In this document: positions 9,157 through 43,288 of the stretch, piece after piece
How the letters are laid out: the number at the start of each line of letters is the position of its first letter
Numbering within the stretch: position 1 is the first letter of the stretch
Source of the DNA: a virus
Lineage: Duplodnaviria; Heunggongvirae; Uroviricota; Caudoviricetes
Reading direction: 5' to 3' (one strand)
DNA length: 64,000 nucleotides
Virus record (IMG/VR): IMGVR_UViG_3300046533_001163
Notes under the pieces: model-generated
Told to the model about the DNA's origin: nothing
The model's database searches: none
Seen by the model: only the letters and a program-made list of their open reading frames with translations
Made by a program: the position numbers and the translations under genes

Positions 9157-9882
9157 CTAAGGTTTAACGAGTAATTCAGCAATCTGTGATGCAGTTTTGC
9201 TTTGAAAAGCGTAATACCAGTTTCTTCGGTTCATCCAGTCATGATGCGCAGTATACACAGTATATCCAGCCAAAAATCTATCAACAGCTAATATTGTATC
9301 TCTGGCATACGTGTAGGTTTCGAGTGCTTCGTGGTAATGATGGAAATCTTTATGAATCACTCCGCAGCGTAAAAACATCGTAAGAGCAGACATACGCATA
9401 CTGTACTGCGTCCAAAAATCTGATGGTTCAATCCAAATACAATTAGGCTTATCAACGCCGTCCAATGAAGTCTTCTTGAACGTACTTAAATTCGTAAGAT
9501 TTAAAACTTCTTCAATCATTCTAATATAGTGAGCTATCTTTTCCCCGAAACCACCCGTTTCACGGTAAACACTAAAATAAAATCCTTTTGTAAATAGTGC
9601 TCCACAATTCTGCATACTATTTTTGCCAGTTTGCATAGATGTTTCAAATAACTCCCTACATTTCTCCCAAGAAGTAGTCTCAGGCTCGGCAACTGAGCGG
9701 AGGCCGAAGCAACCATCACTTGTTGACATTAGGCCGTAGACTGACGGAGCAATCTGTTTAACTTCATCAGGAAAAATGGATAACTTATTTTCAGCCATCT
9801 GCCAAATTTCTTCGTTGCTTTTATGCTGATTTCCGTTTTCGTAAATTTTGTGTGCCGTAAATGCAATACACTGCTCTCTCAT
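9157..9882 (-). CDS. hypothetical protein
   Basis: 241 aa. AAGGAG sits 5 nt upstream of the ATG. Confidence 0.4.
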   Translation of the reverse strand: MREQCIAFTAHKIYENGNQHKSNEEIWQMAENKLSIFPDEVKQIAPSVYGLMSTSDGCFGLRSVAEPETTSWEKCRELFETSMQTGKNSMQNCGALFTKGFYFSVYRETGGFGEKIAHYIRMIEEVLNLTNLSTFKKTSLDGVDKPNCIWIEPSDFWTQYSMRMSALTMFLRCGVIHKDFHHYHEALETYTYARDTILAVDRFLAGYTVYTAHHDWMNRRNWYYAFQSKTASQIAELLVKP

Positions 9883-11187: not shown

Positions 11188-12171
11188 TTATTTCTTGACT
11201 TGCATTAATACATAGCCAACTAATAATAAACAAGAAGCACCATAAAACCAATGATCTAATGATACCACTTCATTGTAAGGCTTCGTTAGATCTAATTCTA
11301 AAAATTGATTTGCTATGTTAGTTATCTGACGAGACATGTCCCCCGACGATGAATATCGCACATAAGATCCATTTCCTATTGCGGCGATAAATTTGAGTAC
11401 GCTCTCATCTAGGCTAGAGCGAAGCATGTTTCCTTTGCCATCAACGTAGTAGCCCTCAAAAACATTATCTATACGCTTTGTAAGCTTGCAATTATCTGAC
11501 CCTAGTCCGATGCTGCTGAACACAAAACCAAACTTCTTCAATTCACTAATATGTCTTTTAATTTCATCTCGGTCAATAGTCAATCCTTCCTCAAGGCCAC
11601 CATCAGACAATACAACAACAATGTTCTTACCGCTAGTGATTTTACGATTATTAGCAATTTGATGTAATGCAGAGAACGCACTCTCAACCGAAGTTCCTGG
11701 GATATCTACTACCTTATAATCCACTTCACGAAGAAGAGTTAAAAAAGTACTTTTTTTAGTTGTTAAAGGGCAGTATCCAATGTTTGCCGCGCCCGAGAAT
11801 GGAATCAAACTTGTGGCAGCAACACCGGGTAATTCGATATAAGATTTTTCTATTTCCTGCTTTGCGGCAACCAATCGGTTAGGCCGAATATCCTCACACA
11901 TCTGCATACTTTTGCTAACGTCCAAGAGGAAGAAAAATCGGATATCCTTATAGGCATACTTGACGACTTCCCTATAAGGCCCAGCTAGGCCAATGATAGC
12001 GCTGCCGATTGCAGCTACCAAAAGTATAACGGCAGTCATTCTGTTTTTAAAACTAGGCGTATTGCCCAGCAGACTAATCTCGCCGAATCTACGGATTCGC
12101 TTTGCGGCGATGAAGATTACTGGGATTAGCACGAAGAGGAAGTACAGGTAATTAGGTGATAGAAGGTGCAT
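11188..12171 (-). CDS. BatA-like membrane vWA-domain protein
   Basis: N-terminal transmembrane helix. LLDVSKSM DxSxS MIDAS motif. VVVLSDGG. C-terminal transmembrane helix. This is the architecture of aerotolerance BatA proteins. Confidence 0.6.
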   Translation of the reverse strand: MHLLSPNYLYFLFVLIPVIFIAAKRIRRFGEISLLGNTPSFKNRMTAVILLVAAIGSAIIGLAGPYREVVKYAYKDIRFFFLLDVSKSMQMCEDIRPNRLVAAKQEIEKSYIELPGVAATSLIPFSGAANIGYCPLTTKKSTFLTLLREVDYKVVDIPGTSVESAFSALHQIANNRKITSGKNIVVVLSDGGLEEGLTIDRDEIKRHISELKKFGFVFSSIGLGSDNCKLTKRIDNVFEGYYVDGKGNMLRSSLDESVLKFIAAIGNGSYVRYSSSGDMSRQITNIANQFLELDLTKPYNEVVSLDHWFYGASCLLLVGYVLMQVKK

Positions 12172-12177
12172 AGATAA

Positions 12178-12516
12178 TTAAGAATCTTTATACTTAACAT
12201 TAATTTTTACATCAACACGATAATTACAAGGTATTTTATTTTTATTAGCATTATATCCAGTATATCCCTTACAATTAATGGGGGTACCATCATATTCGGT
12301 TAATTTTTTGGCTACCGCAGTCTTAATCGCACTAAGAACATCTATGCTGTATCCGCCTTGCTTACAACCGTGCTTATTGCTGCAACAAGCAGTATCTTCT
12401 CGATATCCACAGTGGATATCCCGTATTAAAAATGACGAATAAAAATCACTCTCTTTAACAGTATACGTTATATCCGATGCTTCGGGAAACATTTCTAACA
12501 ATTCAAATTTATTCAT
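12178..12516 (-). CDS. hypothetical Cys-rich protein
   Basis: 112 aa. Confidence 0.3.
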   Translation of the reverse strand: MNKFELLEMFPEASDITYTVKESDFYSSFLIRDIHCGYREDTACCSNKHGCKQGGYSIDVLSAIKTAVAKKLTEYDGTPINCKGYTGYNANKNKIPCNYRVDVKINVKYKDS

Positions 12517-12677
12517 AACCTATTATAGTTCCCCAACCTTCTTCTTAATCAGCTTCTACCCTAATTGCTGCCGGGACTGGATGCGCTTCAATGTAATAGA
12601 AGCCAGCAAATGCTATCGACAGCCAAATTATAGCGACAATTAGTGGTCCAGTATCTAAATCCGTCCAAAAAGTTTTT

Positions 12678-13139
12678 TTACCCATTTATCTCATCCACCT
12701 TCATTTCAACTAAGTCCACAATTTCTTTGTTAGCCGCATCCGTCATCTTCTGCACTTCTTTGTCGTCCAACTCTTTGCGGGCCTTATGCCTAATATTTCT
12801 AATTGATATTTTCGCTTGCTCTCCTAATGCCCTCACGAATTTAATAATCTTTTCTTTCTCCTCTCCACACCTTTTTGGCACGCTTACAACCACACTGTTC
12901 TTTGAAAAGACATAAGAACTAAATCCAGATTTCTGAAGTGCCGTATTTATAGTTCCTAGTAAAGCAGGGTCATAAGGCGTGATTTGTATTCTTTTCCCGT
13001 CACTGTACACCATCGCAATGTGCTTCAATTCGGAAGTGCTTCCGTAACACTCTATCTTGACCGAATCCAGCATACCCGGAGAAACAGAGTCTCTAACCCC
13101 CTGTAGTTGCTCTACCAAATGATCTACCGCTTTGCTCAT
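12678..13139 (-). CDS. frr: ribosome recycling factor
   Basis: Aligns along its length with bacterial RRF: VRDSVSPGMLDSVKIECYG, ITPYDPALLGTI and the C-terminal IRNIRHKARKEL...VQKMTDAANKEI helix. It is shorter at the N-terminus than E. coli RRF. Confidence 0.8.
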   Translation of the reverse strand: MSKAVDHLVEQLQGVRDSVSPGMLDSVKIECYGSTSELKHIAMVYSDGKRIQITPYDPALLGTINTALQKSGFSSYVFSKNSVVVSVPKRCGEEKEKIIKFVRALGEQAKISIRNIRHKARKELDDKEVQKMTDAANKEIVDLVEMKVDEING

Positions 13140-13152
13140 TTGAGCCTTAAAA

Positions 13153-13317
13153 TCAGCACAAGCGATTTTTGTTTTTCTTCATGATTATTTCCTTTGCTTT
13201 TTCTGGGTCCATCTTAAAAATCTCAACATAGATATCGTAATCACTCATAAGTTGCATGCTCTTAAAAACAGGCGTTTTATTAGACCCTATGACATCTACT
13301 TTTACTTCTGCTTTCAT
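13153..13317 (-). CDS. small MKAEVK-leader protein (family member 1, 54 aa)
   Basis: Hand-translated: MKAEVKVDVIGSNKTPVFKS.... It starts with the same atgaaagcagaagtaaaa as the downstream paralogs. Confidence 0.35.
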   Translation of the reverse strand: MKAEVKVDVIGSNKTPVFKSMQLMSDYDIYVEIFKMDPEKAKEIIMKKNKNRLC

Positions 13318-13320
13318 GAT

Positions 13321-14310
13321 TTACTTCTTTTCGCTAACAGTCATAGCCAGATATTTTTTACCACCAAGTATCTTTGTAGAGAATCCTTGGAAAACAACAT
13401 TTTTACTAAAATCAATCCTTGTTCCACGCGACGACCGCCAGGTCGGATATTTAATTACGCTAGCGTTAATATACTCAACCGCCTTCTTAGAAATATCTTC
13501 TAACCAGATCAATTCCTTGTCTAAACTATATTCACTATCATTAGCGCTAAACGGCTTCGGACTTACATATGGAATCAACAATACAGAAGTCATGCCATCA
13601 AAATTAGATAACGAATTTGGATTTCTGTTATCAAACTTATGCTCAACATATGGAATAATTCTTCTTACTAATGAAATAGATACTCTATAAAAGTCAGTCT
13701 CTTGATGAGAGTCAAATACACGAAAAGCAGAACTAAATGTTTCTTGTGCTTCTAGACAATTAGCGATACGATAAGCCGTTTCGCCTTCTAGACCTTTAAG
13801 CATTCCTCTATCATTCCACTTTTTGTAAATATTAGCAGACGCTCCGGCCTTCTCCCAGATATCCCTATTGTCGGTCGCCACATCTTCCAATTCTAGTCCG
13901 GCACCTACGCGATGCGCATGTATAGCGTCCAATATACTATTAATAGTCTGATGTTTTTTATACGATAAAACCAACTGATCGCCTGGATCGCCGTTGATGA
14001 ATAACTGAACAAAGTGTCCTTGGCGACAATACTCGTCAAATACATCATTATCAAACATTTTAATAGATGCAATGTATTCATCTTTAAAGAAAACGGCAAA
14101 GCTGTCCGCTTCAGGAAGAGCCTTCATCTTATACCCATACTTGCAACATCTCAAATCGCTGTCGGATAATTCCCAACGATCACCGTATCCGGTCTTAAAT
14201 TCAACTTTACTCAAATCAACCGCTTCTTGCTTCTGCACACTGGCGCTTAAATTCTGGATACCAACTAATGGTAGTAACGCACCCGCACTCAAAAATTCTC
14301 TTCTTAACAT
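13321..14310 (-). CDS. secreted protein with a twin-arginine (Tat) type signal peptide
   Basis: MLRREFLSAGALLPLVGIQNLSA (RRxFL). An internal segment is paralogous to the ORF at 14375..14647. Confidence 0.5.
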   Translation of the reverse strand: MLRREFLSAGALLPLVGIQNLSASVQKQEAVDLSKVEFKTGYGDRWELSDSDLRCCKYGYKMKALPEADSFAVFFKDEYIASIKMFDNDVFDEYCRQGHFVQLFINGDPGDQLVLSYKKHQTINSILDAIHAHRVGAGLELEDVATDNRDIWEKAGASANIYKKWNDRGMLKGLEGETAYRIANCLEAQETFSSAFRVFDSHQETDFYRVSISLVRRIIPYVEHKFDNRNPNSLSNFDGMTSVLLIPYVSPKPFSANDSEYSLDKELIWLEDISKKAVEYINASVIKYPTWRSSRGTRIDFSKNVVFQGFSTKILGGKKYLAMTVSEKK

Positions 14311-14374
14311 GATCTTGTCCTTTTTGAAAATTATTACTCTATTTTATCATTAAAAATTACTTTGTCAACGTCAA

Positions 14375-14647
14375 TTATTCTAGCCCCAAATTCACACGAG
14401 AATCATGGATAAATTTTAGTGTACTCTGGACTGACGGATACTCATCTGCCTTAAGATTAACATATGCAAAAGTATCAGAGTCTTTAAAAATAACAGAATG
14501 AGCATCAGGCTCCTCGTACATCTTAACTTCTGCTATCTGTTGGTCTTGCAAGTATATCGGAAAAACCTTGCGTTCTTCCGACCACATAATATCGTAACCA
14601 TAATCAGAGCTAGTAAGCTTACATAATTCATCTTTCATATCTTTCAT
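14375..14647 (-). CDS. hypothetical protein, paralogous to a domain of the 13321..14310 protein
   Basis: VIFKDSDTFAYV...STLKFIHDSRVNLGLE matches AVFFKDEYIASI...SILDAIHAHRVGAGLELE. Confidence 0.4.
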   Translation of the reverse strand: MKDMKDELCKLTSSDYGYDIMWSEERKVFPIYLQDQQIAEVKMYEEPDAHSVIFKDSDTFAYVNLKADEYPSVQSTLKFIHDSRVNLGLE

Positions 14648-14666
14648 AATTCTTCCTTTTTAAAAA

Positions 14667-14921
14667 TTAATTTTCTTCGTAATTTAAATTCCATAAATTC
14701 GCATCACACCCATTTTGGGTAGTTATAAACCAATAGCCAACATAATATGAACTTTCCCCAAAAGATAAAAATTTAATCCCATGATGTTTAGCATATGATT
14801 TAAACTTCATCACCAAATGCTTCGGCACAGCCCATCCCAGGCTATGTGAATTACCAGAATAAACACTGAATATTGTAGATGTACTTTCATACGCAGTAGT
14901 TATCTTAACTTCAGCTTTCAT
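14667..14921 (-). CDS. MKAEVK-leader small protein (family member 2)
   Basis: Starts MKAEVKI. ATGA overlap with the upstream gene. Shares the central HLVMKFKSYAKHHGIKF and C-terminal LWNL motifs with the other members. Confidence 0.5.
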   Translation of the reverse strand: MKAEVKITTAYESTSTIFSVYSGNSHSLGWAVPKHLVMKFKSYAKHHGIKFLSFGESSYYVGYWFITTQNGCDANLWNLNYEEN

Positions 14922-15139
14922 GTTTTAAACTCCTCGTAAAACCGGTACAGATAACTTCGATTAACTTCAAATCCACTATACTTGGCGACACAAGGTATTT
15001 TATACTTTTTAATAAACTGCGCAAGATGTACGCGATCAGCAAAACTTGCGCCTTTAATAAACCTAATAGCATTATTAATATAGGTAATTGTTATTACCGG
15101 CTTTTTATGGTCAACTACTATCTTTACTTCTGCTTTCAT
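14918..15139 (-). CDS. MKAEVK-leader small protein (family member 3)
   Basis: Starts MKAEVKIVV. Conserved VHLAQFIKKYKIPC block. Confidence 0.5.
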   Translation of the reverse strand: MKAEVKIVVDHKKPVITITYINNAIRFIKGASFADRVHLAQFIKKYKIPCVAKYSGFEVNRSYLYRFYEEFKT

Positions 15140-15140
15140 A

Positions 15141-15377
15141 TTAAACTGCCCAATTCTCTACATCATACATCTTATTCATTCTGAAAACATAATTGACGCC
15201 ATCAGATGCACAGGCTAAATAATAAATTTTTGATCCCATTAATCTTTTCGTAAAAACGTCAACAACATCTGGTGGAACATATACCATTTGAGCACCGGAA
15301 ATCTCAGAAGGACCAGATTTTACCCCTCTATGACCAAAAGTGGTTTTTAGCAATTCTATCTTTACTTCTGCTTTCAT
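15141..15377 (-). CDS. MKAEVK-leader small protein (family member 4)
   Basis: Starts MKAEVKIELL. YVPPDVVDVFT...VENWAV is clearly homologous to member 6. Confidence 0.5.
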   Translation of the reverse strand: MKAEVKIELLKTTFGHRGVKSGPSEISGAQMVYVPPDVVDVFTKRLMGSKIYYLACASDGVNYVFRMNKMYDVENWAV

Positions 15378-15589
15378 TCTTGAATATTCCACTTAGTAGG
15401 ATCTACAGAGCCTGGCACCTTATAGCTATAATAACTGTACATGTGACCAGTTTGATTTTTAAAACACGGCACACCTTTACTTTCCGCTATTTCCAGGAAC
15501 TTATCAAGAACAGTCTTCTTAACCAAAATATCTTTCCATAGAGATAATTGATTGAAATTAAAAATACTTACACTAACTTCTGCTTTCAT
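15374..15589 (-). CDS. MKAEVK-leader small protein (family member 5)
   Basis: Starts MKAEVSVS. VLDKFLEIAESKGVPCF...TKWNIQE. Confidence 0.5.
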   Translation of the reverse strand: MKAEVSVSIFNFNQLSLWKDILVKKTVLDKFLEIAESKGVPCFKNQTGHMYSYYSYKVPGSVDPTKWNIQE

Positions 15590-15765
15590 CCTGAACCGCC
15601 CAATTCTCTCCATCGCTCAAATAATTTATGCCTAGTTTCCTTACTGATAGCAATCATAAATGCCGGACTTAGCAATTTCCGTCGCAACTCTTCTTTTTCA
15701 TTCTTAATTCTTGCAATTCTCTTGCGCTGAAGTCTCAGTGATTCAGATATAATGTGATAAATCAT
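15586..15765 (-). CDS. small basic protein (59 aa), not a family member
   Basis: MIYHIISESLRLQRKRIARIKNEKEELRRK.... ATGA-coupled at both ends. I preferred this start to the longer MECARM start in the ORF track, which would overlap family member 6. Confidence 0.3.
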   Translation of the reverse strand: MIYHIISESLRLQRKRIARIKNEKEELRRKLLSPAFMIAISKETRHKLFERWRELGGSG

Positions 15766-16004
15766 TCTCGCACATTCCATAATCTAACATTATGAAAAGC
15801 GGGGATGCGAAATACAGTACAGGACATTAATGGCGTTCCTTTCTGTATGAAGTATTTTACTCCACGATCTTTAGCACATGATGTAAAAAGATCAACTAAA
15901 TCTGGCGGAACATAAACATACTGTATTGTATCCCACTTACCGACATCAATATTTTTAAACGGTTGCCTGAAATCTAACAAACTTATCCTTACTTCAGCTT
16001 TCAT
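15762..16004 (-). CDS. MKAEVK-leader small protein (family member 6)
   Basis: Starts MKAEVRISLL. YVPPDLVDLFT...RLWNVRE. Confidence 0.5.
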   Translation of the reverse strand: MKAEVRISLLDFRQPFKNIDVGKWDTIQYVYVPPDLVDLFTSCAKDRGVKYFIQKGTPLMSCTVFRIPAFHNVRLWNVRE

Positions 16005-16129
16005 TTTTTATTCTTATAAGTTTTTAAATTCTGCCGAACACGTTCCGCTTTTTCACGATTACCATTACGATCTAAAACCTTCTTCAGTTGTTTCCTAACT
16101 GCATCCGATGCAATGTGGGGGCCAGTCAT
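16001..16129 (-). CDS. small basic protein (42 aa)
   Basis: Hand-translated: MTGPHIASDAVRKQLKKVLDRNGNREKAERVRQNLKTYKNKK. TAATG overlap upstream and ATGA overlap downstream. Confidence 0.25.
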   Translation of the reverse strand: MTGPHIASDAVRKQLKKVLDRNGNREKAERVRQNLKTYKNKK

Positions 16130-16884
16130 TAAAACTGTCCTTTATTCGGACTGGCTCCTACTAGCGGGCTAGTAAGCTGTTGGACTCTTTCTTCACGAGG
16201 CTTCTTTGCCTGCGCCATCATTTTTTCTTTTTGCTGAAGAAGAAGTTCAATATTAATCTGACTGTTCAAATCCTTATCCTTATACTTCAAAGAATTCTTA
16301 AATGCGTTCAGTGAATTAAGAAAAGTTTCTTCCGCATTATCGGGAGTAGACAATAGCTGCAAATGACGGAAGTAAATGCATCCTTTTGTGTACCACAACA
16401 TATAGTTGTATTCACTAGAGCCATTATAAGAAATAGTTTCAACGTAAACCTTTGCCTCATTATAATCCGATATAATACTACGGGAAAGAGTTGATATGAG
16501 CGAATGCTGCTCAGGAGTCAAATAAAAATTAGCTTCTGGTTTAGACGTATCTCTGTTATCATAAAAAACCTTATGCAGGTTTTTAGCCTTAACGAAATCT
16601 CGCTCTGCTCTACGAAGCAATGACAGCGCCATCTTAAGCTTCAGAACAGACTCAATTTCGTTTTTGTTATCAACTTCTAGTAAGGATATTTTATACTCAA
16701 TATTTTTAATGTCATCTGGCTGCGCGGGAGCTGAATTAGCATCATCCATCGCTCGCTGTACAGAAGATATGTTATTGTGCTCTGTATCAGAGCGATTCTT
16801 ATATGCAGAATATACCACATATATTACCACAATAATAAACGCATTAATACTAAGCCAAACCAACCCATTCCACAACTTACTCAT
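16129..16884 (-). CDS. membrane-anchored protein, possibly a BatC-like helical-repeat protein
   Basis: N-terminal transmembrane helix LVWLSINAFIIVVIYVVY followed by a helical/coiled region. It sits immediately downstream of the BatA-like gene. Confidence 0.35.
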   Translation of the reverse strand: MSKLWNGLVWLSINAFIIVVIYVVYSAYKNRSDTEHNNISSVQRAMDDANSAPAQPDDIKNIEYKISLLEVDNKNEIESVLKLKMALSLLRRAERDFVKAKNLHKVFYDNRDTSKPEANFYLTPEQHSLISTLSRSIISDYNEAKVYVETISYNGSSEYNYMLWYTKGCIYFRHLQLLSTPDNAEETFLNSLNAFKNSLKYKDKDLNSQINIELLLQQKEKMMAQAKKPREERVQQLTSPLVGASPNKGQF

Positions 16885-20164: not shown

Positions 20165-20193
20165 TAAATAAAGTAGTGAATACTAAATAATAT

Positions 20194-20373
20194 ATGATGG
20201 AAAAATTCACTAATTTCTTCGCTTCCTGCTCTAGCTGGATTAAAGCCAAAAAACTTCAAATTTTAAGCTACGGTATTTTGGGCGTAATCCTTTGGTGGAC
20301 GATTGTCGCGGTCTGGTGGGTAATCAAGATAATCCTATGCACCTGCTTCGGCATCTGTATCCTTTTTCCTTAA
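20194..20373 (+). CDS. small two-transmembrane protein (59 aa)
   Basis: Hand-translated: MMEKFTNFFASCSSWIKAKKLQILSYGILGVILWWTIVAVWWVIKIILCTCFGICILFP. A plus-strand ORF in an otherwise empty gap. Confidence 0.25.
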   Translation: MMEKFTNFFASCSSWIKAKKLQILSYGILGVILWWTIVAVWWVIKIILCTCFGICILFP

Positions 20374-20856
20374 TTATCTCTTCACCAAATCTTCGGCTCG
20401 TGGAAGCCAATACAGATTACTTAAAAATCCTATATGATTGTTATACGCATACTTCGGCTTAGTATATCCATTCTTGAATAGATTAAGCAATTCTTTAGAT
20501 TTAGCCGACCTAAAATAATGACCTGGACTTTTGAGTACTGCCGAAAAAATTGACTTCCTGAAGGAGTTAGCCGACCACCACCTGCCTAAATCAACATAAA
20601 TAACAAATTCTGTATCGGTAACATAAAATTTCGCTTTATTTTTAACCTTAGCATCTTTTTCAAATTCTATAATTCTGGAAACTGCATTCTCCCAGTTCCG
20701 ACTACGAAAGTAAAAATCTCTATGACCTACTAGGTATTGTTGGAGATTATCTCTACAACCGACCCAGTTGCCGTTACTTCGCGCGAATCGCATTCTTCCT
20801 CTACCATATCCGTAAATAGCGTTAGGCACATGAAGCGTACTCTTAGGTAGTTTCAT
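20374..20856 (-). CDS. hypothetical protein; tandem paralog A
   Basis: Shares MKLP and WWSANSFRKSIFSAVLKS...LLNLFKNGY with 20858..21379. Confidence 0.45.
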   Translation of the reverse strand: MKLPKSTLHVPNAIYGYGRGRMRFARSNGNWVGCRDNLQQYLVGHRDFYFRSRNWENAVSRIIEFEKDAKVKNKAKFYVTDTEFVIYVDLGRWWSANSFRKSIFSAVLKSPGHYFRSAKSKELLNLFKNGYTKPKYAYNNHIGFLSNLYWLPRAEDLVKR

Positions 20857-20857
20857 A

Positions 20858-21379
20858 CTAACCTTTCTTAACTAATTCTTTAGGCTCTTTTGTTTTTAAG
20901 TTCTCTAAAAATCCATCTGACTCTGTGTATTTTATAGACGGCACATGATACCCATCAATAAATAACTTAAGCAATTTTTGCGGCTTATCACCAGCAAAAT
21001 ACTTCTTTCTACTTTTAAGAATGGCCGAAAAAACAGACTGTCTCAAAGAATTCGCAGACCAGAAACTTCCCATTTTAACGTAAATACAATTCAATGTCTT
21101 AGTTTGATAAAATTCAGCAGGCTCTTTTAATCCCATCATTTTTTCAACATCGCGGACTCTTTTAACGCCAGATTCCCAAGTCTTATGGTAAAAATAAAAT
21201 TCATTCGTGCTATGACTCACAATATAACTATGAAAAATATCCCTGCACTCAGTCCAATAACTTGTGCGAAATTTCGCCCTATTGTTCATACTCAAGTACA
21301 TTGTACTTGGTGCGGGATTACCTGTTGGCGGTAACTTCATCTTAGCCTCAAGAAATGTAAGCTGTTCCGTTTTTAACAA
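20858..21379 (-). CDS. hypothetical protein; tandem paralog B
   Basis: FWSANSLRQSVFSAILKS...LLKLFIDGY. Confidence 0.45.
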   Translation of the reverse strand: MLKTEQLTFLEAKMKLPPTGNPAPSTMYLSMNNRAKFRTSYWTECRDIFHSYIVSHSTNEFYFYHKTWESGVKRVRDVEKMMGLKEPAEFYQTKTLNCIYVKMGSFWSANSLRQSVFSAILKSRKKYFAGDKPQKLLKLFIDGYHVPSIKYTESDGFLENLKTKEPKELVKKG

Positions 21380-21566
21380 CTAGACTGTCCGCAACTCCGG
21401 CAATAACTACATGCGGCTGTGTTTTACGCTTCCTGCTGAATGTCCGCACGCTACAATCTAAATCATCTACTAATAGGCATTGCCCACGATAATGCACAGT
21501 TAATTTCGGTGAACCAAATTTACGTGAGGCAGGTTTGTTATAATGATACCAGAAACTATAGCTCAT
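21348..21566 (-). CDS. hypothetical protein
   Basis: 72 aa ORF between paralog B and thioredoxin. Confidence 0.25.
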   Translation of the reverse strand: MSYSFWYHYNKPASRKFGSPKLTVHYRGQCLLVDDLDCSVRTFSRKRKTQPHVVIAGVADSLVVKNGTAYIS

Positions 21567-21850
21567 TTCAACTCAGCCAGTCTGCCTAAAATAATATCTT
21601 CTTTCTGAAGTCCTTCTAGCCTTGATTCTTCCTTACCATCTTTAAAAAAGATGATCGTTGGTACAGCACGAATTTTATAATGGTTCGCGGTATCAGCAGA
21701 ATGCTCCGCATCAACCTTAATAATCTTGACCACCTCTTTTAATTTGTCAAGAACTGGCTCCATCATTTTGCACGGACGGCACCAACTAGTATGAAAATCT
21801 ACTAAGACAATTCCGCTCTTAATTTCATCATTAAATTCTTTTAAATGCAT
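21563..21850 (-). CDS. trxA: thioredoxin
   Basis: WCRPCK active site (canonical WCGPCK). About 95 aa. AVPTIIFFKDGK. Confidence 0.8.
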   Translation of the reverse strand: MHLKEFNDEIKSGIVLVDFHTSWCRPCKMMEPVLDKLKEVVKIIKVDAEHSADTANHYKIRAVPTIIFFKDGKEESRLEGLQKEDIILGRLAELK

Positions 21851-22194
21851 GTTTTTTTACTCCTTACGAATGAGTTGGTCCCTGATTGGACCAACGATTG
21901 AACGGCATTAAATGAAATAAACTTAACATCTACCGCTAATAAAGCAACCTCACTCAATAAAGTTATCTGAGCGTTTTTAAGCGGCTTCAAATCCCCAATA
22001 TACGTTGACTGACCCGGACAATGATAGACAATGTATTCCTTCCCATCTAGAAGAAGTGGACCTTGAATAACCTTGATTTTATCATTAACCCTCAAACGAC
22101 GCATAGTCTTATAGGTGCCATCAGCGGAATAAATTCCGCTTGCCGTATTCCCAAGCACCCGAACTATATCGCCTACTTTAATCTTGCGCATCAA
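21841..22194 (-). CDS. hypothetical protein
   Basis: 117 aa. Confidence 0.35.
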   Translation of the reverse strand: MMRKIKVGDIVRVLGNTASGIYSADGTYKTMRRLRVNDKIKVIQGPLLLDGKEYIVYHCPGQSTYIGDLKPLKNAQITLLSEVALLAVDVKFISFNAVQSLVQSGTNSFVRSKKTCI

Positions 22195-24296: not shown

Positions 24297-25751
24297 TCAT
24301 TGTAATTGTAGCCCTTCCGCTACCTTCAAAGTTTTAACTTCACTCCCTACGACCAGTTCTTGTAGGAAGATTTCACCCGAGAGTTTCGCGCTCTTATTTC
24401 GGATACTGCCAACAAATTCTTTTAGATCTGCCAGACTAACCCGTAGTCCTGTAAGGACGGCTTCCTCAACGTTGTCATTCAATTTCCGCCATAAAACCCA
24501 TGAATGAATTCGTTTATCTTGGTACTTTCCTGCAAGGGTTCCCAAAACAAAATCCTTCACTCGTTTTTTAGCTTGTTTATAGAATGACAATTTTTCATTA
24601 AATCCAAGTCCTCTACGTCCTATCACGTAGGCCGCAGATTCATGGATAGTAACCTTGTGCATCCAGCGATACTTGTACTTTCCGATAATACTAGTAAACG
24701 CCGGATTAACTTTTATATACTCAACTCCATGCTCAATACATTTTCGTTCTAATAATTCTATGAATTTACGCCATACAAATGGTGCTCTTCCGCGATTTAT
24801 TTTTCTTCCGCTAAGACAAATCTCTTTTTTAAAGAACAAGTTCTCAAACACGATACCCTTATTCTTTTCTTTGGCATAATTAATTACTTGTTTTACTAAA
24901 CATCCGATATCGTAATCTCTTTTATGGGTAGAACCATATAATAAACGATTATTAATTAATGACTTGGATTCTACGAGGTTTCCATCTTTGCTTACTTCAG
25001 CCAAGGCGATTCTGTCAGGGTTTGTGTCTACCCCTATACAGCCGTTGCCTAATTTAGTTGTTGGTTCTGGAGCAGTAATTTGATAATCAATCTTAACATA
25101 AAAATGAGTGGCATCTTTTCTAATTAACCGAACATTATATGCTCTACCGCTTTGAAGTAATTCTTGCAATCTTTCCTGAAACTTTTGTGGTATGAAAAGA
25201 TGGTAATAAACCCATTTTTTAAAACCTATCGTAATTCTGAGCCTATCGCCGACAATTCTGGCATTAAGATTTCCCTGCCGAGAAGCCCTTCCGCGGCAAT
25301 AAATTTGCTTATTTCTATTATCTGTCCACTCCGCTTTTGTGATTTTGCCTAACTTGTAATCTTTCCATGCCTTTCTACCACCAAAGACAAGCTTATAATT
25401 ACTAATTAATTTATCAATTCGCCCAAGTCTTTTTTTTAATTTGTTTTTTTGTTTTAAAGAAATCTTCGTTTTTATTTTTTGCTCTATAATTTGTCTTTTT
25501 TCGCAAAATCCTTCTATTTCTGATAAAACTTTCAAATAATAAGTTTGCCCTTCATTTACGGCGTCTGCCAATTGTCTAGAATTTAAATTATTATAAATAC
25601 CCTTGGCCAATTTCTGAACCGAATAGGGCATCATCTTAGTTTTTAAAAACTTACAATATGAAAAACGAACACATGATTGAAAATCTATAATCAAACCATC
25701 TAGTTCATCAAAATTTATAGCCCATAATTCTCCATGTATAATTTTAAACAT
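24297..25751 (-). CDS. divergent TnpB/Cas12-family RuvC-fold protein lacking the zinc finger and the RuvC-III aspartate
   Basis: RuvC-I GVDTNPDRIALAEVSKDG. RuvC-II GIVFENL. VNPAFTS. After TS the CxxC...CxxC finger is absent, and DxDxNAA is replaced by TIHESAAYVIGRRG. The start MFKIIHGEL is taken just after the ALDH stop. Confidence 0.5.
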   Translation of the reverse strand: MFKIIHGELWAINFDELDGLIIDFQSCVRFSYCKFLKTKMMPYSVQKLAKGIYNNLNSRQLADAVNEGQTYYLKVLSEIEGFCEKRQIIEQKIKTKISLKQKNKLKKRLGRIDKLISNYKLVFGGRKAWKDYKLGKITKAEWTDNRNKQIYCRGRASRQGNLNARIVGDRLRITIGFKKWVYYHLFIPQKFQERLQELLQSGRAYNVRLIRKDATHFYVKIDYQITAPEPTTKLGNGCIGVDTNPDRIALAEVSKDGNLVESKSLINNRLLYGSTHKRDYDIGCLVKQVINYAKEKNKGIVFENLFFKKEICLSGRKINRGRAPFVWRKFIELLERKCIEHGVEYIKVNPAFTSIIGKYKYRWMHKVTIHESAAYVIGRRGLGFNEKLSFYKQAKKRVKDFVLGTLAGKYQDKRIHSWVLWRKLNDNVEEAVLTGLRVSLADLKEFVGSIRNKSAKLSGEIFLQELVVGSEVKTLKVAEGLQLQ

Positions 25752-27213
25752 TAGACGATAACCCTTGCGCCCATGTAATCTTATCGTCATAATTCGTAGT
25801 GACAGCAATTTTATGGCAGGTAGCATCAAAATTTCCTGATGCTGAAGGATGCCCAATTCCACTTTTCTTAATACCGCCGAACGGCACAGAACTTTCTGCA
25901 CCAATACTTCCTGCATTAAAATAAATCATTCCAGAATCAATCTCATCCTGGAACTTTTTCATCGTCCTAAAATTATCGGTTATAACGGCACAGCTTAACC
26001 CAAAATCTGTATCATTATAAATTCTAATCGCATCATCCGCATCATCAAAAGGAATAATCGCTACGTGAGGGCCAAATACTTCCTCTTTAAGAAATCGCTT
26101 GTTTGCCCATTCGCAAAGATAAACAAATGGGGATAAGAAATAACCATTACCCACCAATTTGTCGCCTTGTATCAAAACTCTACAAGAACGATCTTTTAGA
26201 ACCATTTCATTATAAGAAACAACTCTTTCCAATGATTCTTTACTAATTACAGGTCCGAAAAAACTTTTTTCATTACTTGGTGCGCCAATAACCAATTCCT
26301 TCACTCTGGCAATAAAATGAAGAACAAAACTATTCAATAGTTGCCTATGTACCAAAATTCGGCCAGCAGAAACACATCGCTGGCCAGCCAATTTAAATGA
26401 TGAATTAACACAAGCATCAAGAGCAAGGTCTAGGTTTCCATCATCCATTACAATAACGGCTGACTTACTTCCCATCTCACAAGAACAATCTTTATTCCAT
26501 TGGGTTGCACAATGCTGTTTAATTTTCATTCCAACTTCGGCGCTTCCAGTAAATAAAACATAATTTACATCACTATTCTCAACCAATAGTTTTCCGGCTT
26601 CATCTTGTCCTTGTATCATGTTGTAAACGCCCGCCGGGAAACCAGCTTCATGATACAGTTCTGCTGTTAAATTAGCTGACAAAGGCGATAGCTGACTTGG
26701 CTTATGAACTACGCAATTTCCTTCTAATATCGCTGGAGCAGAGGTCCAATGTGTGATGGCATACGGAAAATTCCATGGTGTAACACAAGCTACAACCCCA
26801 CGAGGCTTGCGAATTATAGAAATTGATTTTTCAGCAACTTCTGAAGGAATCAATTCGCCTGCCGGCAGTCTTCCTCTACCGGCAGTAATCTCGCACATGT
26901 GCTTGGCTTCATTTACTTCAGCCAATGCTTCATTCTTATTCTTGCCTGTCTCCGCACATATCACTTTTATGATATCATCTTTTCTTCGCTCAATTCGGGC
27001 AGCAAGTTTAAGAAAATACTCGCCTCTGGCTGGACGACTAATTTTACTCCATTTATGGAATGCATTTCTAGCGGCGGCTACCGATAAATCAACTCCATCT
27101 ATTACTGTATTATTGACAACTTCAAGGACTTCTTCGGTAGATGGATCTATCTTATGAAAATAACCACTTGTACCCGATGAAGTAAATTCGCCATTAATGT
27201 AATTTTTATACAT
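25744..27213 (-). CDS. aldehyde dehydrogenase family protein
   Basis: VTPWNFP. FTGSAEVG. CEMGSKS. FKLAGQRCVSAGRILV (catalytic Cys). EEVFGP. 489 aa. Confidence 0.8.
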   Translation of the reverse strand: MYKNYINGEFTSSGTSGYFHKIDPSTEEVLEVVNNTVIDGVDLSVAAARNAFHKWSKISRPARGEYFLKLAARIERRKDDIIKVICAETGKNKNEALAEVNEAKHMCEITAGRGRLPAGELIPSEVAEKSISIIRKPRGVVACVTPWNFPYAITHWTSAPAILEGNCVVHKPSQLSPLSANLTAELYHEAGFPAGVYNMIQGQDEAGKLLVENSDVNYVLFTGSAEVGMKIKQHCATQWNKDCSCEMGSKSAVIVMDDGNLDLALDACVNSSFKLAGQRCVSAGRILVHRQLLNSFVLHFIARVKELVIGAPSNEKSFFGPVISKESLERVVSYNEMVLKDRSCRVLIQGDKLVGNGYFLSPFVYLCEWANKRFLKEEVFGPHVAIIPFDDADDAIRIYNDTDFGLSCAVITDNFRTMKKFQDEIDSGMIYFNAGSIGAESSVPFGGIKKSGIGHPSASGNFDATCHKIAVTTNYDDKITWAQGLSSNV

Positions 27214-33948: not shown

Positions 33949-35329
33949 GCCAATGTTTATTTATATACAGGCTAACATCAGTGTCGTTCTGAACTACAGC
34001 AAAACAATTGCCGGATGGAGCATATGCAATTTTAGAAACTAAACCTAAGTCGTCATCAATCGATTCGTAGCCACCATTTGACCAACTGGCACTACCCAAT
34101 GTTCCATCTTGATTTGCAACAATTATCTCTTTGTCTACTGGATTAAGATCAAAGCATTTAACCGGTATATTAAAATTATACACATAAATCGTATCCAAAT
34201 TTCTAGGATTTAAAATTTCAATACGATATTTGCCTTTATCATCAATTAAAACTCCTAAAACATCTTTACCAAAGGCAACTCCTAACATTCTTCGTACAGA
34301 TTTATTTTTCGTCAGTGTTGATGCAATCTCCTCCCCCTTGTCAATATCTAAAATTGATATATCGTTATCTGGAGAAATCAAAGCCACCAATCTATTCTTC
34401 CATGACGGAATTAGGGTCTTAACGGCTGGCCCAATAGATCGGAAAATATTACTATCTTTGATGGTACTTGCCCATCCATGTCCTTTAAAATCTTCTACAT
34501 TAAACGACTTCATTTCTATAATACTCTCGCCTGTGTTCGGTTTAGGCTTATGCAATAAAATATAAGACTGAGATACATCGCCCAATAAATAAGCAGATGT
34601 ATAATCATCTATTCTATGACAACCATACTGCATGCGATTAGCAAGACTAAAGCAGCTAACATTATATCCTAAGTCATATACCCCCATTAACGAATAATCT
34701 AAAAAGGAAAAATACGATGGTAAGTTTGCCACATCAATGGAGTGCTCTTCCATTTTCTGAACTCGGTCTGGATAAATTTTTACAAAATTAATCTTATTCT
34801 CATTACTATAAGCAAAAATTTCGCCATTATTCAAAGTAAACGGAGCAAAAGCACAAATGGGAAAATCAACCCCTGTCGCCACTTCCTTACGATAATAACC
34901 ATAGCCTACTCCTCCGCCTGTATCTTTTTTTTCAACTGATTCTGAAGAAGTATCTCCGTCATGCATAAGCCGCTTCTTAACAGAAAAATTATAAGGATGC
35001 GACATTCTAACAATAAACTTAGCGGCATCCGTACGATGCACTGATGGGCAAAGAACAACACGTTTATTGCCATACTCATTATTTAATGCAATAACAGGAA
35101 GACAAGTTTTCTGACAAATAATGTCAGGCAAATCATTATCTACAGCGCAAGACGCAAGAATACAAGGAGAAAAAATACTTTCTGCCCTTGCTAAAACAGT
35201 GTCTAACGCCGGACCAATGTTGGGTATGCGAAAAATTTGATGAGGAATATTCCAAAACGACAAATCATTGGATAAGTACCCAACATCATCGCTCTCTTTA
35301 TTAGTGGTTATTATAAATACGGGTTTCAC
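33935..35329 (-). CDS. hypothetical protein
   Basis: 464 aa. Confidence 0.4.
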   Translation of the reverse strand: MKPVFIITTNKESDDVGYLSNDLSFWNIPHQIFRIPNIGPALDTVLARAESIFSPCILASCAVDNDLPDIICQKTCLPVIALNNEYGNKRVVLCPSVHRTDAAKFIVRMSHPYNFSVKKRLMHDGDTSSESVEKKDTGGGVGYGYYRKEVATGVDFPICAFAPFTLNNGEIFAYSNENKINFVKIYPDRVQKMEEHSIDVANLPSYFSFLDYSLMGVYDLGYNVSCFSLANRMQYGCHRIDDYTSAYLLGDVSQSYILLHKPKPNTGESIIEMKSFNVEDFKGHGWASTIKDSNIFRSIGPAVKTLIPSWKNRLVALISPDNDISILDIDKGEEIASTLTKNKSVRRMLGVAFGKDVLGVLIDDKGKYRIEILNPRNLDTIYVYNFNIPVKCFDLNPVDKEIIVANQDGTLGSASWSNGGYESIDDDLGLVSKIAYAPSGNCFAVVQNDTDVSLYINKHWHDYA

Positions 35330-36240
35330 GGCTTCACCAACACCTTCTCGGCACTTTTGTCACAGTATACGAATGTGTTCACCCAACCGGTTTCTTCCTT
35401 GCCAACAAACTTTGTATATCCATCTAAAAATCTGGTAATATACTTGTTTGTCTGAGCGGAATAAGTATATGACCTCAATGCGTCTTTATAATTATCTTTC
35501 TTCTGATCATACAAAAGACCAGCTCTTACCAATATGGTAAACAAAGATCTCTTCAGGGTATCGGCCCTCCAAAAACCAGATGGATCAATTTCAATAATAT
35601 TGTACTGATTGGTTTCGTAAAACTTGGTGAACTCTTTTAATCCAAGCTTTACTTCAAGTCTATGGATGAACCTAGCAACCCGACGAGATCTAAGACGGTA
35701 ATCATTATAATTCTTAGCAGTTCCTTTGCTAATACTTACCGTACAAAAGAACATCTTTTCCGTTTTTGCATGGAATGACTTAGCAAACTCTTCTCTACAA
35801 TGAAACCACTTAACCGTACTGTTTTTCTCGTTATCAAACACCCCTAAGTGCTGACCTTGCGGCTCGTAGATAGAAAAGCAACATGCCCGCATTGGGCGAA
35901 CCATTGGAATAATATACTTCGCCGACAAACTATCATATGTCTTTTTAATTTCTTCATTTTCCAACGTAGTTTTTGCAAACTCGCAACATTCATCTATAAT
36001 ATTTTGGTAGTTGCTTCTTTTAGCATCAATTCTATCAAACTTCGTATAGATAGGCTCCCACTTGTCGCCCTTTTGATTCAAAACTAAGTAAACTGCGGTG
36101 TCTGTAGACAAAGGTTTCTTGGCAGCAACTACAGTTAACTTTCGCGTTGTTAAAAACACCCGTCCAGGCTTTACGAAATGCATCGTAACTTTGCCGGAAC
36201 AATTATCAGATTTTAATTCGCAACTTCCAAGTAATCTCAT
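35326..36240 (-). CDS. hypothetical protein
   Basis: 304 aa. Confidence 0.4.
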   Translation of the reverse strand: MRLLGSCELKSDNCSGKVTMHFVKPGRVFLTTRKLTVVAAKKPLSTDTAVYLVLNQKGDKWEPIYTKFDRIDAKRSNYQNIIDECCEFAKTTLENEEIKKTYDSLSAKYIIPMVRPMRACCFSIYEPQGQHLGVFDNEKNSTVKWFHCREEFAKSFHAKTEKMFFCTVSISKGTAKNYNDYRLRSRRVARFIHRLEVKLGLKEFTKFYETNQYNIIEIDPSGFWRADTLKRSLFTILVRAGLLYDQKKDNYKDALRSYTYSAQTNKYITRFLDGYTKFVGKEETGWVNTFVYCDKSAEKVLVKP

Positions 36241-38589: not shown

Positions 38590-39804
38590 TCAAGCAACTT
38601 TTTTAGGCATACAGTGCAATTTTGCACTACCGCAAACAGATTCCTTGGTAACTACATAATCCATCGGCAAAATGTCAACCATTGTATCCAACAATAAGTT
38701 TTCAATAATAGTTTTTAGCGCTCTTGCTCCAGTTTTTTCTGCATGCGCTTTTTCGGCGATAGCTATAAGCGATTCTTCTGTAAAGTCTAAGCTGGCACCA
38801 GATAGCTTAAATATCGCGTCATACTGCTTGCAAAGAGAATTCTTGGTATCTCGCAAAATACTCACAAGAGCAGAAACGTCTAAGCTGGATAAAACCGTTT
38901 TCACTGGAAGTCTACCGACAAACTCTGGAATAAGACCATATTCAATTAAGTCTTCATTAATAACGTCGGCTAATATATGTTCATTAAATCCATCGCTACC
39001 AAAACCGATTCGTTTTCTATTAGTTCTTTTAGCAACAATCTTATCAAGGTGAGTAAAAGCGCCGCCACAGATAAAAAGAATATTTGTAGTATCAACTGGA
39101 ATATATGCTTGCTCAGGATGCTTTCTGCCACCTGCCGGAGGCACATTAGCAATAGTGCCTTCCAGCATCTTTAGTAAAGACTGTTGAACTCCTTCTCCAG
39201 AAACATCCCTCGTAATTGAAACATTACTACTAGTTTTACTAATTTTATCTATTTCATCAATAAAGATAATTCCTCTTTGTGCCACTTCTACATTAAAGCT
39301 GCAATTATGCAACAATTTAAGAATTAAATTTTCAACGTCCTCTCCGACATACCCTGCTTGCGTCAGCGTAGTAGCATCGCCAATCGCCAACGGCACCGAC
39401 AATATTTTTGCTAAGTTCTTAACTAAGGCTGTCTTACCGACGCCGCTGGGTCCGATCATTAAAACATTTGATTTTTCAATCTCTACATCTGTAGATGTAG
39501 AGAAAATTCTTTTATAGTGATTACTAACAGCAACCGATAAAACTTTTTTAGCATGACTCTGGCCGATGATATAATCGTCTAGTCTTTTAATAATCTCTAA
39601 TGGTGATGGAATACTTTCCATCGTTTCCTGATTTAGATTTACTATTGAGTTTTCTTTAAATATCCTTGTGCAATCTGATACGCAATCCAAACAAATATGG
39701 GTGCTTTCATCTTGCCCATGTACTAACTGCTTTGTCGCATTACCAACTCCACAGAATGAACATTTTTTGCTGGGCATTTTTCGTCTTCGTGTGCTTTTCG
39801 CCAT
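38590..39804 (-). CDS. clpX: ATP-dependent Clp protease ATP-binding subunit ClpX
   Basis: N-terminal C4 zinc finger (CSFCG...CLDC). [62 protein letters not shown]. Collinear with ClpX. Confidence 0.85.
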
Positions 39805-41999: not shown

Positions 42000-43288
42000 G
42001 AAGTAAAATCTTCTAAAATAATGAAAAAATAGCAAAATATCGCACGCTATATTATCTTGTGTACAAATCATACAAGATAGAGCTAGCCCCAAACAACAAG
42101 CAAAAGACACGATTCTATCAATGTGCCGGTACAGCTAGATTCATATTTAACTGGGGATTATTTAAGATTTCATCCGCTTACAGCAAAGATAAAACAAAAA
42201 TAACGACATTTGAATTAAGTAATCAACTAACTCAACTCAAAAAAACAAAAGAATATATTTGGTTAAAAGAAATTTCTTCTTGGGTACCGATTTATGCCTT
42301 GCAAAATCTTAATTCGGCATTCAAAAATTTTTTCCGAAATTGCAAGCAAAATAAAAAGGGCAAAAAAGGCTTCCCTAAGTTTAAACAAAAAGGCAAAGCC
42401 TTAAATAACTTTACCGTGAGCGATGTGTTCTACGGCCCAAAACACGTTAAGCTACCAAGGATAGGTAAAATACGACTCAAGGAACATGGTTACATTCCAG
42501 CTAACTCTAAAGTCGTCAATGCAACAATAACTGAACATGCGGGACGATGGTTCATATCAATGCTAATAAATGAACCAGAGCCAAATTTTCAAGGTGCCAA
42601 AGACAAATACTCGCAAGTAGGCGTTGATCTAGGAATTAAAACACTTGCTGTAATTAGTGACGGACAAGAATTTCAGAGTCCTAAGCCACTTAAAAAGCAC
42701 ACTAAAAAACTCAAAAAACTACAACGAAAACACGCTAGATGTAAAGGAGTCAAAAACAGAGAAAAAGCAAGAAAAAAACTGGCAAAATGCCATTATCGCG
42801 TAACATGTATTCGCAAGGATACATTGCATAAAATTACTACACACTTAACGAAAACCAAGTCAAGAATAGTAATTGAAGATTTAAACGTTTCGGGAATGAT
42901 GAAAAATCATAAGTTGTCAAGAGCAATCTCAGATTTAGGCTTCTATGAATTTCGCAGACAGCTTGAGTATAAAGGAAGATGGTATAATTGTGAAATTATA
43001 CTGGCCGATAGATTTTTTCCATCTAGTAAAACTTGTCCGTGTTGCAACGATATTTATAAGGACTTAACACTTGATCAAAGAGAATGGAATTGTGCCAACT
43101 GTAATACCCTGAACCTAAGAGATTCAGCCGCAGCAAAAAACCTAGAAGTCTATCCTGAAAAACACGCACACAAATATAATAAACAAAGTACCGTGAGTTC
43201 CACGGAAGCTGACAAAGTGTCTACGACTTAGGAAAAGAAAGCTCTGGCTTACAATGGGTAAGCGAAACTGGCTTTTATGATTAAGTAA
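42000..43288 (+). mobile_element. putative IS1341-type (tnpB-only) insertion
   Basis: A plus-strand island in a minus-strand genome. The ends are not mapped. A hairpin gcttacaatgggtaagc lies just 3' of tnpB, where the guide-RNA (omega-RNA) scaffold and element right end are expected. Confidence 0.3.
42059..43231 (+). CDS. tnpB: TnpB (IS200/IS605-family OrfB RNA-guided endonuclease), stand-alone
   Basis: YKIELAPNNKQ. RuvC-I GVDLGIKTLAVISDG. RuvC-II IVIEDLNV. TCPCCN...WNCANCN zinc finger. RDSAAAKNL RuvC-III. GTG start. No tnpA nearby. Confidence 0.85.
   Translation: MYKSYKIELAPNNKQKTRFYQCAGTARFIFNWGLFKISSAYSKDKTKITTFELSNQLTQLKKTKEYIWLKEISSWVPIYALQNLNSAFKNFFRNCKQNKKGKKGFPKFKQKGKALNNFTVSDVFYGPKHVKLPRIGKIRLKEHGYIPANSKVVNATITEHAGRWFISMLINEPEPNFQGAKDKYSQVGVDLGIKTLAVISDGQEFQSPKPLKKHTKKLKKLQRKHARCKGVKNREKARKKLAKCHYRVTCIRKDTLHKITTHLTKTKSRIVIEDLNVSGMMKNHKLSRAISDLGFYEFRRQLEYKGRWYNCEIILADRFFPSSKTCPCCNDIYKDLTLDQREWNCANCNTLNLRDSAAAKNLEVYPEKHAHKYNKQSTVSSTEADKVSTT

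Follow-up and report, generated by a model that had tools for sequence, protein, structure and literature searches.

Why do six small genes of a probable huge-phage genome encode proteins that begin with the same five residues and then go largely separate ways? The genes lie on the minus strand of a 64,000-nucleotide stretch of DNA, hereafter the window, from the Caudoviricetes record IMGVR_UViG_3300046533_001163. Each opens with the codons for Met-Lys-Ala-Glu-Val. We refer to them as the MKAEV genes, to their common 5' end and its peptide as the leader, and to the individual genes by their start positions (e.g., g16004). The locus is a set of tandem phage paralogues with a conserved N-terminus, a known kind of arrangement that is here built from an ORFan family. 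We suggest that its products are small cytoplasmic accessory proteins of the phage, a family amplified locally and equipped with a common N-terminal handle, and we place the probability of this reading at roughly 0.45. Huge phages encode hundreds of small ORFan genes of obscure logic. A conserved N-terminus of five residues provides a concrete and testable hook into such genes.

A shared start on six small genes

The leader pattern ATGAAAGCWGAAGTWARR, with up to two mismatches allowed, matches six times in the window. All matches are on the minus strand, at the starts 13317, 14921, 15139, 15377, 15589 and 16004, and each opens an open reading frame (ORF). Dinucleotide shuffles produce 0.09 matches on average, which bears out an earlier note on this DNA that had described near-identical 5' ends in six genes. 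The note had also read a common MKAEV(K/S/R)(I/V) start at the protein level. All six proteins do open in this way, with residues 1 to 5 invariant and residues 6 and 7 conservative, and independent Joint Genome Institute (JGI) gene calls on other contigs choose the same six starts. The leader columns are invariant compared to a mean column identity of 36% over the family alignment. The six products are 54-84 amino acids (aa) long, mildly basic (isoelectric point, pI, 7.9-9.8) and contain one or two cysteines each. Signal peptides are absent, and the products are cytoplasmic.

Five of the MKAEV genes form one run beginning at the stop codon of a BatC-like gene. The gene g16004 (15762..16004, minus strand as for all six; 80 aa, MKAEVRISLL...) is the hub of a homologous core of four members. 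It is followed by g15589 (15374..15589; 71 aa, MKAEVSVSIF...), which has an alternative ATG upstream at 15613 and for which JGI takes the MKAEV start. Next is g15377 (15141..15377; 78 aa, MKAEVKIELL..., C-terminus ENWAV), which has a block of 35 nucleotides (nt) in common with g16004 at 83% identity. The run continues with g15139 (14918..15139; 73 aa), where the MKAEV leader precedes a body not significantly similar to the core members, and with g14921 (14667..14921; 84 aa, MKAEVKITTA...). The sixth gene, g13317 (13153..13317; 54 aa), lies 1.35 kb away from the other five, and the body behind its MKAEV leader has no detectable similarity to theirs. By eye it looks truncated after the helix and may be a truncated member. 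What had been described as a tandem array of six is hence a run of five genes, with the sixth set apart.

Homology of the bodies

The bodies were compared after removal of the seven leader residues, using BLASTP, global alignment against shuffles, and hhalign. In BLASTP, the body of g16004 matches g15377 at E = 1e-7, g15589 at E = 2e-5 and g14921 at E = 2e-3. Global alignments of the homologous body pairs reach z = 5-9, including z = 5.0-5.2 for g14921 to g16004 and g15589. The bodies of g15139 and g13317 have no BLASTP matches to other members and z ≤1.0 in global alignments. With hhalign, they reach E = 0.73 and E = 0.47, respectively, against the four-member profile. The demonstrable paralogues by these comparisons are four only, namely 14921, 15377, 15589 and 16004. 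The expectation of six homologous bodies is met by these four but not by g15139 and g13317. The motifs thought to run through all bodies are also less widespread, with YVPPD in just two members and WN in three, with NW in one more. By eye, g15139 and g13317 keep the same order of strand-like and helix-like segments as the other members, and the K-x-(V/I)-P-C motif, in the form K-x-I-P-C, could link g15139 to g15589. One small gene was amplified locally to at least four and probably six copies, which have diverged almost to saturation. Because four of the leaderless bodies are homologous and two are not detectably so, the constraint on the N-terminus lies far above the constraint on the fold.

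Predicted structure

AlphaFold2 was run on g16004 and g15589, each with a five-sequence family alignment. The g16004 model (predicted local distance difference test, pLDDT, 75.5) has strands at residues 20-24, 27-32, 52-55 and 63-68 and a helix at residues 34-46. Residues 1-10 have a mean pLDDT of 44, with residues 4-9 below 50, and residues 1-19 have no assigned secondary structure. The g15589 model (pLDDT 74) places all of residues 1-14 below 50. Over the two models, residues 1-10 average a pLDDT of 42-44. The compact core is beta-beta-alpha-beta-beta in g16004 and beta-alpha-beta-beta in g15589, each with a short C-terminal helix. The products are thus predicted to carry a small compact ACT-like alpha/beta core, modelled with confidence in both cases, in the sense of a generic fold-level resemblance in models built from shallow alignments and not of a functional assignment. 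A fold search against the predicted viral structures of BFVD found no match at E ≤0.001.

The alternative that survives best, itself unlikely, is ordinary structural conservation. The leader would then be the first beta-strand, possibly at a dimer edge, of a small ACT-like domain, and the genes would be plain tandem paralogues with no targeting. The K-A-E-V-K-I sequence alternates between polar and apolar residues as strands do, and the segment order seen by eye appears to be the same across all six proteins. However, the other strands of the fold are nowhere near as conserved, and AlphaFold2 leaves residues 1-14 or 1-19 unpacked in the two models. The Pfam ACT models have no match at E up to 0.1. 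If ordinary structural conservation were true, the ACT-like fold would suggest small-ligand-binding or oligomerising regulators.

Constraint on the leader

The sole variable sites in codons 2-5 are the wobble positions of Ala3 (A/T) and Val5 (A/T), both four-fold. All four haplotypes are present at these two sites, so at least three changes must have occurred, all of them synonymous. The neutral probability of all-synonymous changes is ~0.011, given 2.67 synonymous versus 9.33 non-synonymous sites, which favours a constraint acting on the peptide. The wobble bases of codons 2-5 are A or T in 24 out of 24 cases compared to a fraction of 0.67 in codons 2-5 of the other window genes. The joint probability of all-A/T wobble bases from codon usage is 1.5e-5, and this points to an additional nucleotide-level bias toward an A/U-rich start.

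The wobble bases raise the possibility of a start module at the mRNA level, which we consider distinctly unlikely. The sequence AUGAAAGCWGAAGUW would be kept for efficient (re-)initiation in overlapping genes or would be bound by a translational regulator. T4 RegA is known to bind start regions. Beyond the A/T-only wobble, such a module would be consistent with the four of six leader ATGs overlapping the upstream stop codon as ATGA, with unstructured start regions (fold z -1.0 to +1.5), and with Shine-Dalgarno pairing that is weak or absent in four of the six genes. Yet Shine-Dalgarno pairing is weak genome-wide, with a median of -3.1 kcal/mol and values of -4 or lower in just 35% of other genes, and still no other gene has an MKAEV start. 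A special Shine-Dalgarno deficit of the array was rejected for the same reason. Among the other ATG-started ORFs of the window, taken from a simple longest-ORF call, just 5 of 69 begin with MK. Demand for an A/U-rich start in general leaves Ala-Glu-Val unexplained, and A/T swaps at two positions weaken specific RNA pairing and leave the peptide unchanged. No conserved RNA structure was found at the six starts, and this candidate was rejected based on the fold z-scores. A separate observation is a 14-17-nt stretch at 13724-13740, inside the gene of a 329-aa protein, that is complementary (82-93%) to the leaders of 13317, 15139, 15377 and 15589. This complementarity is probably due to chance.

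Distribution of the family

Family homologues were sought by profile in a word index of 5.8 billion clusters, where just the six proteins and a fragment came up. HMMER, run in full over 1.84 billion representative proteins, returned these again plus one spurious repeat protein, and no homologue. The MKAEV family has no match in Pfam, PHROGs, NCBIfam, PADLOC or PDB sequences, and PADLOC found no defence-system match for any of ten locus proteins. A DNA scan for arrays, defined by two degenerate MKAEV starts 190-220 nt apart, yielded 14 metagenome loci, none of which is a gene array; all are tandem repeats of satellite type or lie within genes as such repeats. The same scan of viral contigs had no match. 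The metagenome contigs WLWD01006247.1 (10142-12286) and WLWD01006096.1 (1091-2392) carry tandem repeats with a 46-nt period, the units of which read MKAEV(G/E)TGSGACRSCDEGRGRNREWSM. These repeats are unrelated satellite-like DNA caught by the leader pattern.

The family is present on seven to nine contigs, the longest of 511 kb. Seven other contigs with the array are a 100% match to the window except for a single-nucleotide polymorphism at 21826, which falls outside the array. IMG/VR scans for related genomes with the 329-aa protein, a 490-aa protein and the RRF protein found nothing, and the protein collection contains no homologue of either the 329-aa or the 490-aa protein. A scan of the genome collection with the aldehyde dehydrogenase returned only matches of ~36% identity from unrelated bacteria and thus gave no hint of the host. 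The sole related genome, found via tblastn against phage records, is LR756511.1. This 595,163-bp record was deposited as 'uncultured phage' and is a distant relative of the window's genome. LR756511.1 contains no MKAEV start, and no N-terminal pentapeptide is common to more than four genes among its ~1,099 ORFs.

A proposed N-terminal handle

We suggest that the N-terminal peptide acts as a handle at the protein level. It would form a flexible amphipathic segment with a strand-like alternation, through which one common partner might recognise or dock every member of the family. Candidates for this partner are an assembly, a protease or unfoldase, and a packaging scaffold, and the members might also serve as one another's partner. 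Differing specificities would then come from the diverged bodies, as expected of the accessory proteins with which large phages interact with their hosts. The A/T-only wobble could reflect a second constraint at the mRNA level that keeps the start A/U-rich.

Several points weigh against this proposal. The A/T-only wobble means that part of the conservation acts on nucleotides. The unplaced N-terminus may represent a modelling failure given the shallow alignment of five sequences, and the leader may be nothing more than the fold's first strand. Divergence beyond recognition, rather than a lack of relationship, may account for the bodies of g15139 and g13317. The family is carried by one clonal genome only, and both the handle and its partner are putative. 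The phage assignment rests on a single distant relative that was labelled as phage by its depositor. No virion gene was seen in the window, and no gene for a capsid protein or prohead protease was recognised among the 20 largest ORFs scanned.

Junctions and rearrangement

Within the five-gene run, two interleaved basic ORFs included, neighbouring genes either overlap stop to start or are 1 nt apart. ATGA overlaps are located at 16004, 15765, 15589, 15377 and 14921, and a TAATG overlap at 16129. The overlaps from which translational coupling of all genes had been proposed are present at these five ATGA sites and the one TAATG site, but 15139 is preceded by a 1-nt spacer and 13317 by a 3-nt spacer. 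The two interleaved ORFs had been described as small, basic and unrelated to the family, and this is what we find. The ORF at 16001..16129 (minus) encodes 42 aa with a pI of 10.8, is linked by TAATG to the BatC-like gene and by ATGA to 16004, and has no family match in Pfam, PHROGs, NCBIfam or PADLOC. The ORF at 15586..15765 (minus) encodes 59 aa with a pI of 10.9. Neither has similarity to the MKAEV family as a protein.

Two junctions contain copies of a 54-nt repeat (15126-15179 and 15576-15629, minus strand) with 78% identity, which comprises the 3' end of the upstream gene and the leader. At 15126-15179 the repeat runs from the tail of g15377 into g15139, and at 15576-15629 from the tail of the basic ORF 15586-15765 into g15589. 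The upstream part of the repeat reads ...ENWAV* in one copy and ...WRELGGSG* in the other, in different frames. The block gagaattgggc(a/g)gtt, noted earlier as occurring in two frames, is real and lies within this repeat. The last ~40 nt of the basic ORF 15586-15765 match the 3' end of g15377, and the remainder resembles no family member. This ORF ends in a remnant of an MKAEV-family gene that is read in another frame, and the remnant is therefore direct evidence of recombination at the level of junctions. The proposal of shuffling at the DNA level is thus supported by a repeat that sits at gene junctions and is read in two frames.

Genome setting and accessory insertion

The window has a GC content of 38%, and one strand carries 85 of the 104 ORFs. 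Its products include ClpX, a short RRF, thioredoxin, NUDIX, ParB-like, amidoligase and TnpB-like proteins, an insertion sequence (IS) transposase and many ORFans. Homologues of 21 of the 104 window ORFs were detected in LR756511.1. Because of these shared ORFs and a syntenic MoxR/DUF58/vWA operon, the source genome is probably that of a huge phage. Translation genes, RRF among them, are known from huge phages (PMC7162821).

The operon order in LR756511.1 is NUDIX, MoxR, DUF58, BatD-like (474 aa), vWA (349 aa), BatC-like (237 aa) and BatB-like vWA. The BatC-like (387663-388376) and BatB-like (386642 to ~387661) genes are adjacent there, with a 1-nt spacer. The corresponding genes of the conserved operon in the window are a BatC-like gene at 16129..16884 (minus, 251 aa) and a BatB-like vWA gene at 11188..12171 (minus, 327 aa). 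Between the two lies an accessory block of 3,957 bp (12172..16128, minus), the first gene of which overlaps the BatC-like stop codon. Besides the six MKAEV genes and the two basic ORFs, the block encodes RRF, the 329-aa protein with an RRxFL motif, and ORFs of 90, 46 and 112 aa. None of the block genes matches LR756511.1. Because the operon of LR756511.1 is uninterrupted and without the block genes, the array block is a lineage-specific accessory insertion. Judged by gene order, the array would use the operon's expression and is not part of the conserved MoxR/vWA machinery.

The 329-aa protein (13321..14310, minus) has a twin-arginine-like N-terminus. The Tat signal that had been assigned to it matches RRxFL by eye (MLRREFLSAGALLPLVG...LSA|S) but has no Pfam or NCBIfam model support. 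The acidic 90-aa ORF (14375..14647, minus) is paralogous to residues 53-140 of the 329-aa protein, and the module that the two had been said to share was recovered by BLASTP at E = 2e-8 with 28% identity over 88 aa. The 12-nt leader core GCAGAAGTTAAG occurs in frame (IAEVKM) at 14522-14533 (minus) inside the 90-aa ORF. The degenerate 12-mer has no further match in the window beyond the leaders and this site, which could be due to chance or a trace of microhomology. The AEVK core common to the MKAEV family and the 90-aa/329-aa module suggested a link, which was rejected as the bodies have no similarity. A promoter-like site at 14341..14368 (minus) upstream of the 329-aa gene has TTGACA, a 16-nt spacer and TG-TAAAAT, with 11 of 12 matches, and sits in the only 64-nt spacer of the block. 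The site is a match to a sigma-70-like consensus only, and promoter-like sites in the region are no more numerous than in shuffles. Its position suggests that the 329-aa gene, g13317 and the RRF gene may form a separate transcription unit. The RRF homologue of the block (12678-13139, minus) is just 153 aa long (Pfam RRF, 93 bits) and has no counterpart in LR756511.1.

The window differs from LR756511.1 by another insertion of ~2 kb (20165-22190), which separates MoxR from DUF58 and carries ORFs of 116 and 72 aa, a thioredoxin (21563-21850) and a pair of tandem paralogues. The tandem paralogues (20374-20856 and 20858-21379) have 41% identity, with further relatives at 9157-9882 and 35326-36240. 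A TnpB/Cas12f-like ORF (24297-25916, minus) spans 539 aa in the mechanical ORF list and 497 aa according to JGI. It overlaps the 3' end of a well-conserved aldehyde dehydrogenase gene (25744-27213, minus; Pfam 435 bits). An IS-type transposase at 42059-43231 is on the strand opposite to the TnpB-like ORF and the aldehyde dehydrogenase gene. A protein of 1,256 aa (59993-63763, minus) contains three Laminin_G_3/concanavalin-like lectin domains.

Possible packaging and other destinations

The locus had been likened to the internal-protein loci of T-even phages. An accessory cassette, shuffling, and a leader far more conserved than the bodies agree with this analogy, but the conserved block of 5-7 residues without a cleavage site does not. 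A capsid-targeting leader, in which MKAEV(K)(I) sends proteins into the prohead, to act against defence or in host takeover once ejected with the DNA, and the shared 5' end promotes shuffling, is quite improbable. The relatedness of the genome to a huge phage, the conserved N-terminus on diverse and mildly basic bodies, and the visible recombination at junctions would all be in keeping with such a leader. However, the leader contains neither (L/I)xE, the cleavage motif of the T4 prohead protease, nor AxE or SxE; its sole Glu is at position 4, with Lys at P3 and Ala at P2. The genes are embedded in and coupled to the MoxR/vWA operon rather than a head-gene or early-gene cluster, and the 20 largest ORFs scanned showed no capsid or protease gene. 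Internal proteins of the T4 type, which are packaged and ejected, come from phages with a scaffolding core and a gp21-type prohead protease. The array contigs are 100% identical apart from the one polymorphism outside the array and LR756511.1 is without the block, leaving no variation between genomes to compare. Precedents exist in the T4 internal proteins and in gp53/gp54 of SPN3US (PMC3012670, PMC9026906, PMC5694885). In T4, the capsid-targeting sequence occupies residues 1-10 of IPIII, where positions 8 and 10 determine processing and cleavage follows Glu10 (PMC9026906). T4 propeptides span 10-20 residues (PMC5694885), compared to the 5-7 conserved residues of the MKAEV proteins. The protease motifs reported for SPN3US and phiKZ are AxE and SxE (PMC5694885).

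A bolder proposal, and a long shot, is that MKAEV(K)(I) represents a new and very short targeting signal of a huge-phage lineage. It would take diversifying small ACT-like effectors to a single place, whether the prohead for ejection or an unfoldase such as the ClpX encoded in the window, and would serve as a portable tag that recombination attaches to new bodies. The portable tag is hinted at by the two members with unrelated bodies. It is conceivable that the window ClpX reads N-terminal tags, though nothing ties ClpX to the array. The ClpX homologue itself (38590-39804, minus) has ~50% identity to the ClpX of LR756511.1 and to ClpX-like sequences of other phage records. If the handle is a packaging or degradation signal, the T4 capsid-targeting principle would extend to an unrelated clade of huge phages and provide a minimal tag for engineering. 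Otherwise, the locus remains a case of local amplification, near-saturation divergence and junction rearrangement in a conserved huge-phage operon.

Homogenisation at the DNA level, with a functionless leader kept identical by gene conversion or serving as microhomology for illegitimate recombination, is highly improbable. In its favour are the 54-nt junction repeat spanning the leader, the four haplotypes compatible with recombination and the leader core within ORF 14375-14647. Against it, the identical tract is only 15-18 nt long with flank identity at background within ~20-40 nt, conversion alone would not confine changes to synonymous sites, and the tract starts exactly at the ATG, which better suits selection on the product or start region. 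An array of ribosomally synthesised and post-translationally modified peptide (RiPP) or bacteriocin precursors was rejected based on a block of 5-7 residues versus at least ~15, one or two cysteines per protein rather than a core rich in Cys, Ser or Thr, and a predicted domain fold of the products. Around the array lie vWA, RRF and ORFan genes, and not modification enzymes or a peptidase-transporter. An immunity array against polymorphic toxins was rejected in view of the absence of a toxin-like neighbour and of any Pfam, NCBIfam or PADLOC match, such as to an Imm or SUKH family.

Comparison with known systems

The flanks of the array resemble aerotolerance-type Bat/MoxR-DUF58-vWA operons, with a MoxR AAA_3 ATPase, DUF58, membrane vWA, BatD-like and BatC-like proteins in the usual compact order. 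The MKAEV genes themselves fall outside the conserved operon, because the LR756511.1 copy of it lacks them. The predicted cores recall ACT domains, but the family differs from these with ~10% identity and no match to ACT hidden Markov models. The canonical ACT order is beta-alpha-beta-beta-alpha-beta, whereas the MKAEV cores are predicted as beta-beta-alpha-beta-beta or beta-alpha-beta-beta.

Parallels in organisation are found among phage internal and head proteins. In very large phages, gp53/gp54 of SPN3US and gp93-95/162/163 of phiKZ are strongly diverged paralogues with an identical N-terminus (PMC5694885). The first 15 residues of SPN3US gp53 and gp54 are identical at an overall identity of 34% (PMC5694885). 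These SPN3US/phiKZ head paralogues are ~31 kDa when mature and have propeptides of more than 100 residues with AxE/SxE sites, more broadly (S/A/G)xE, and the PF12699 domain, in contrast to MKAEV proteins of 54-84 aa. The MKAEV proteins have no match to PF12699 or other Pfam families at E up to 0.1, and the leader reads K-A-E. The MKAEV family also has no sequence or fold similarity to T4 IPI, and its genes are located in a MoxR/vWA operon. The T4 internal proteins have only the capsid-targeting sequence in common (PMC3012670, PMC9026906). Like the MKAEV proteins, the T-even proteins IPI, IPII and IPIII are small, mostly basic and carry a shared N-terminal peptide on diverse bodies, four of which are clear paralogues in the MKAEV set. 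They are likewise encoded by clustered genes in an accessory region, which is variable in the T-even phages, with DNA shuffling around a shared 5' end.

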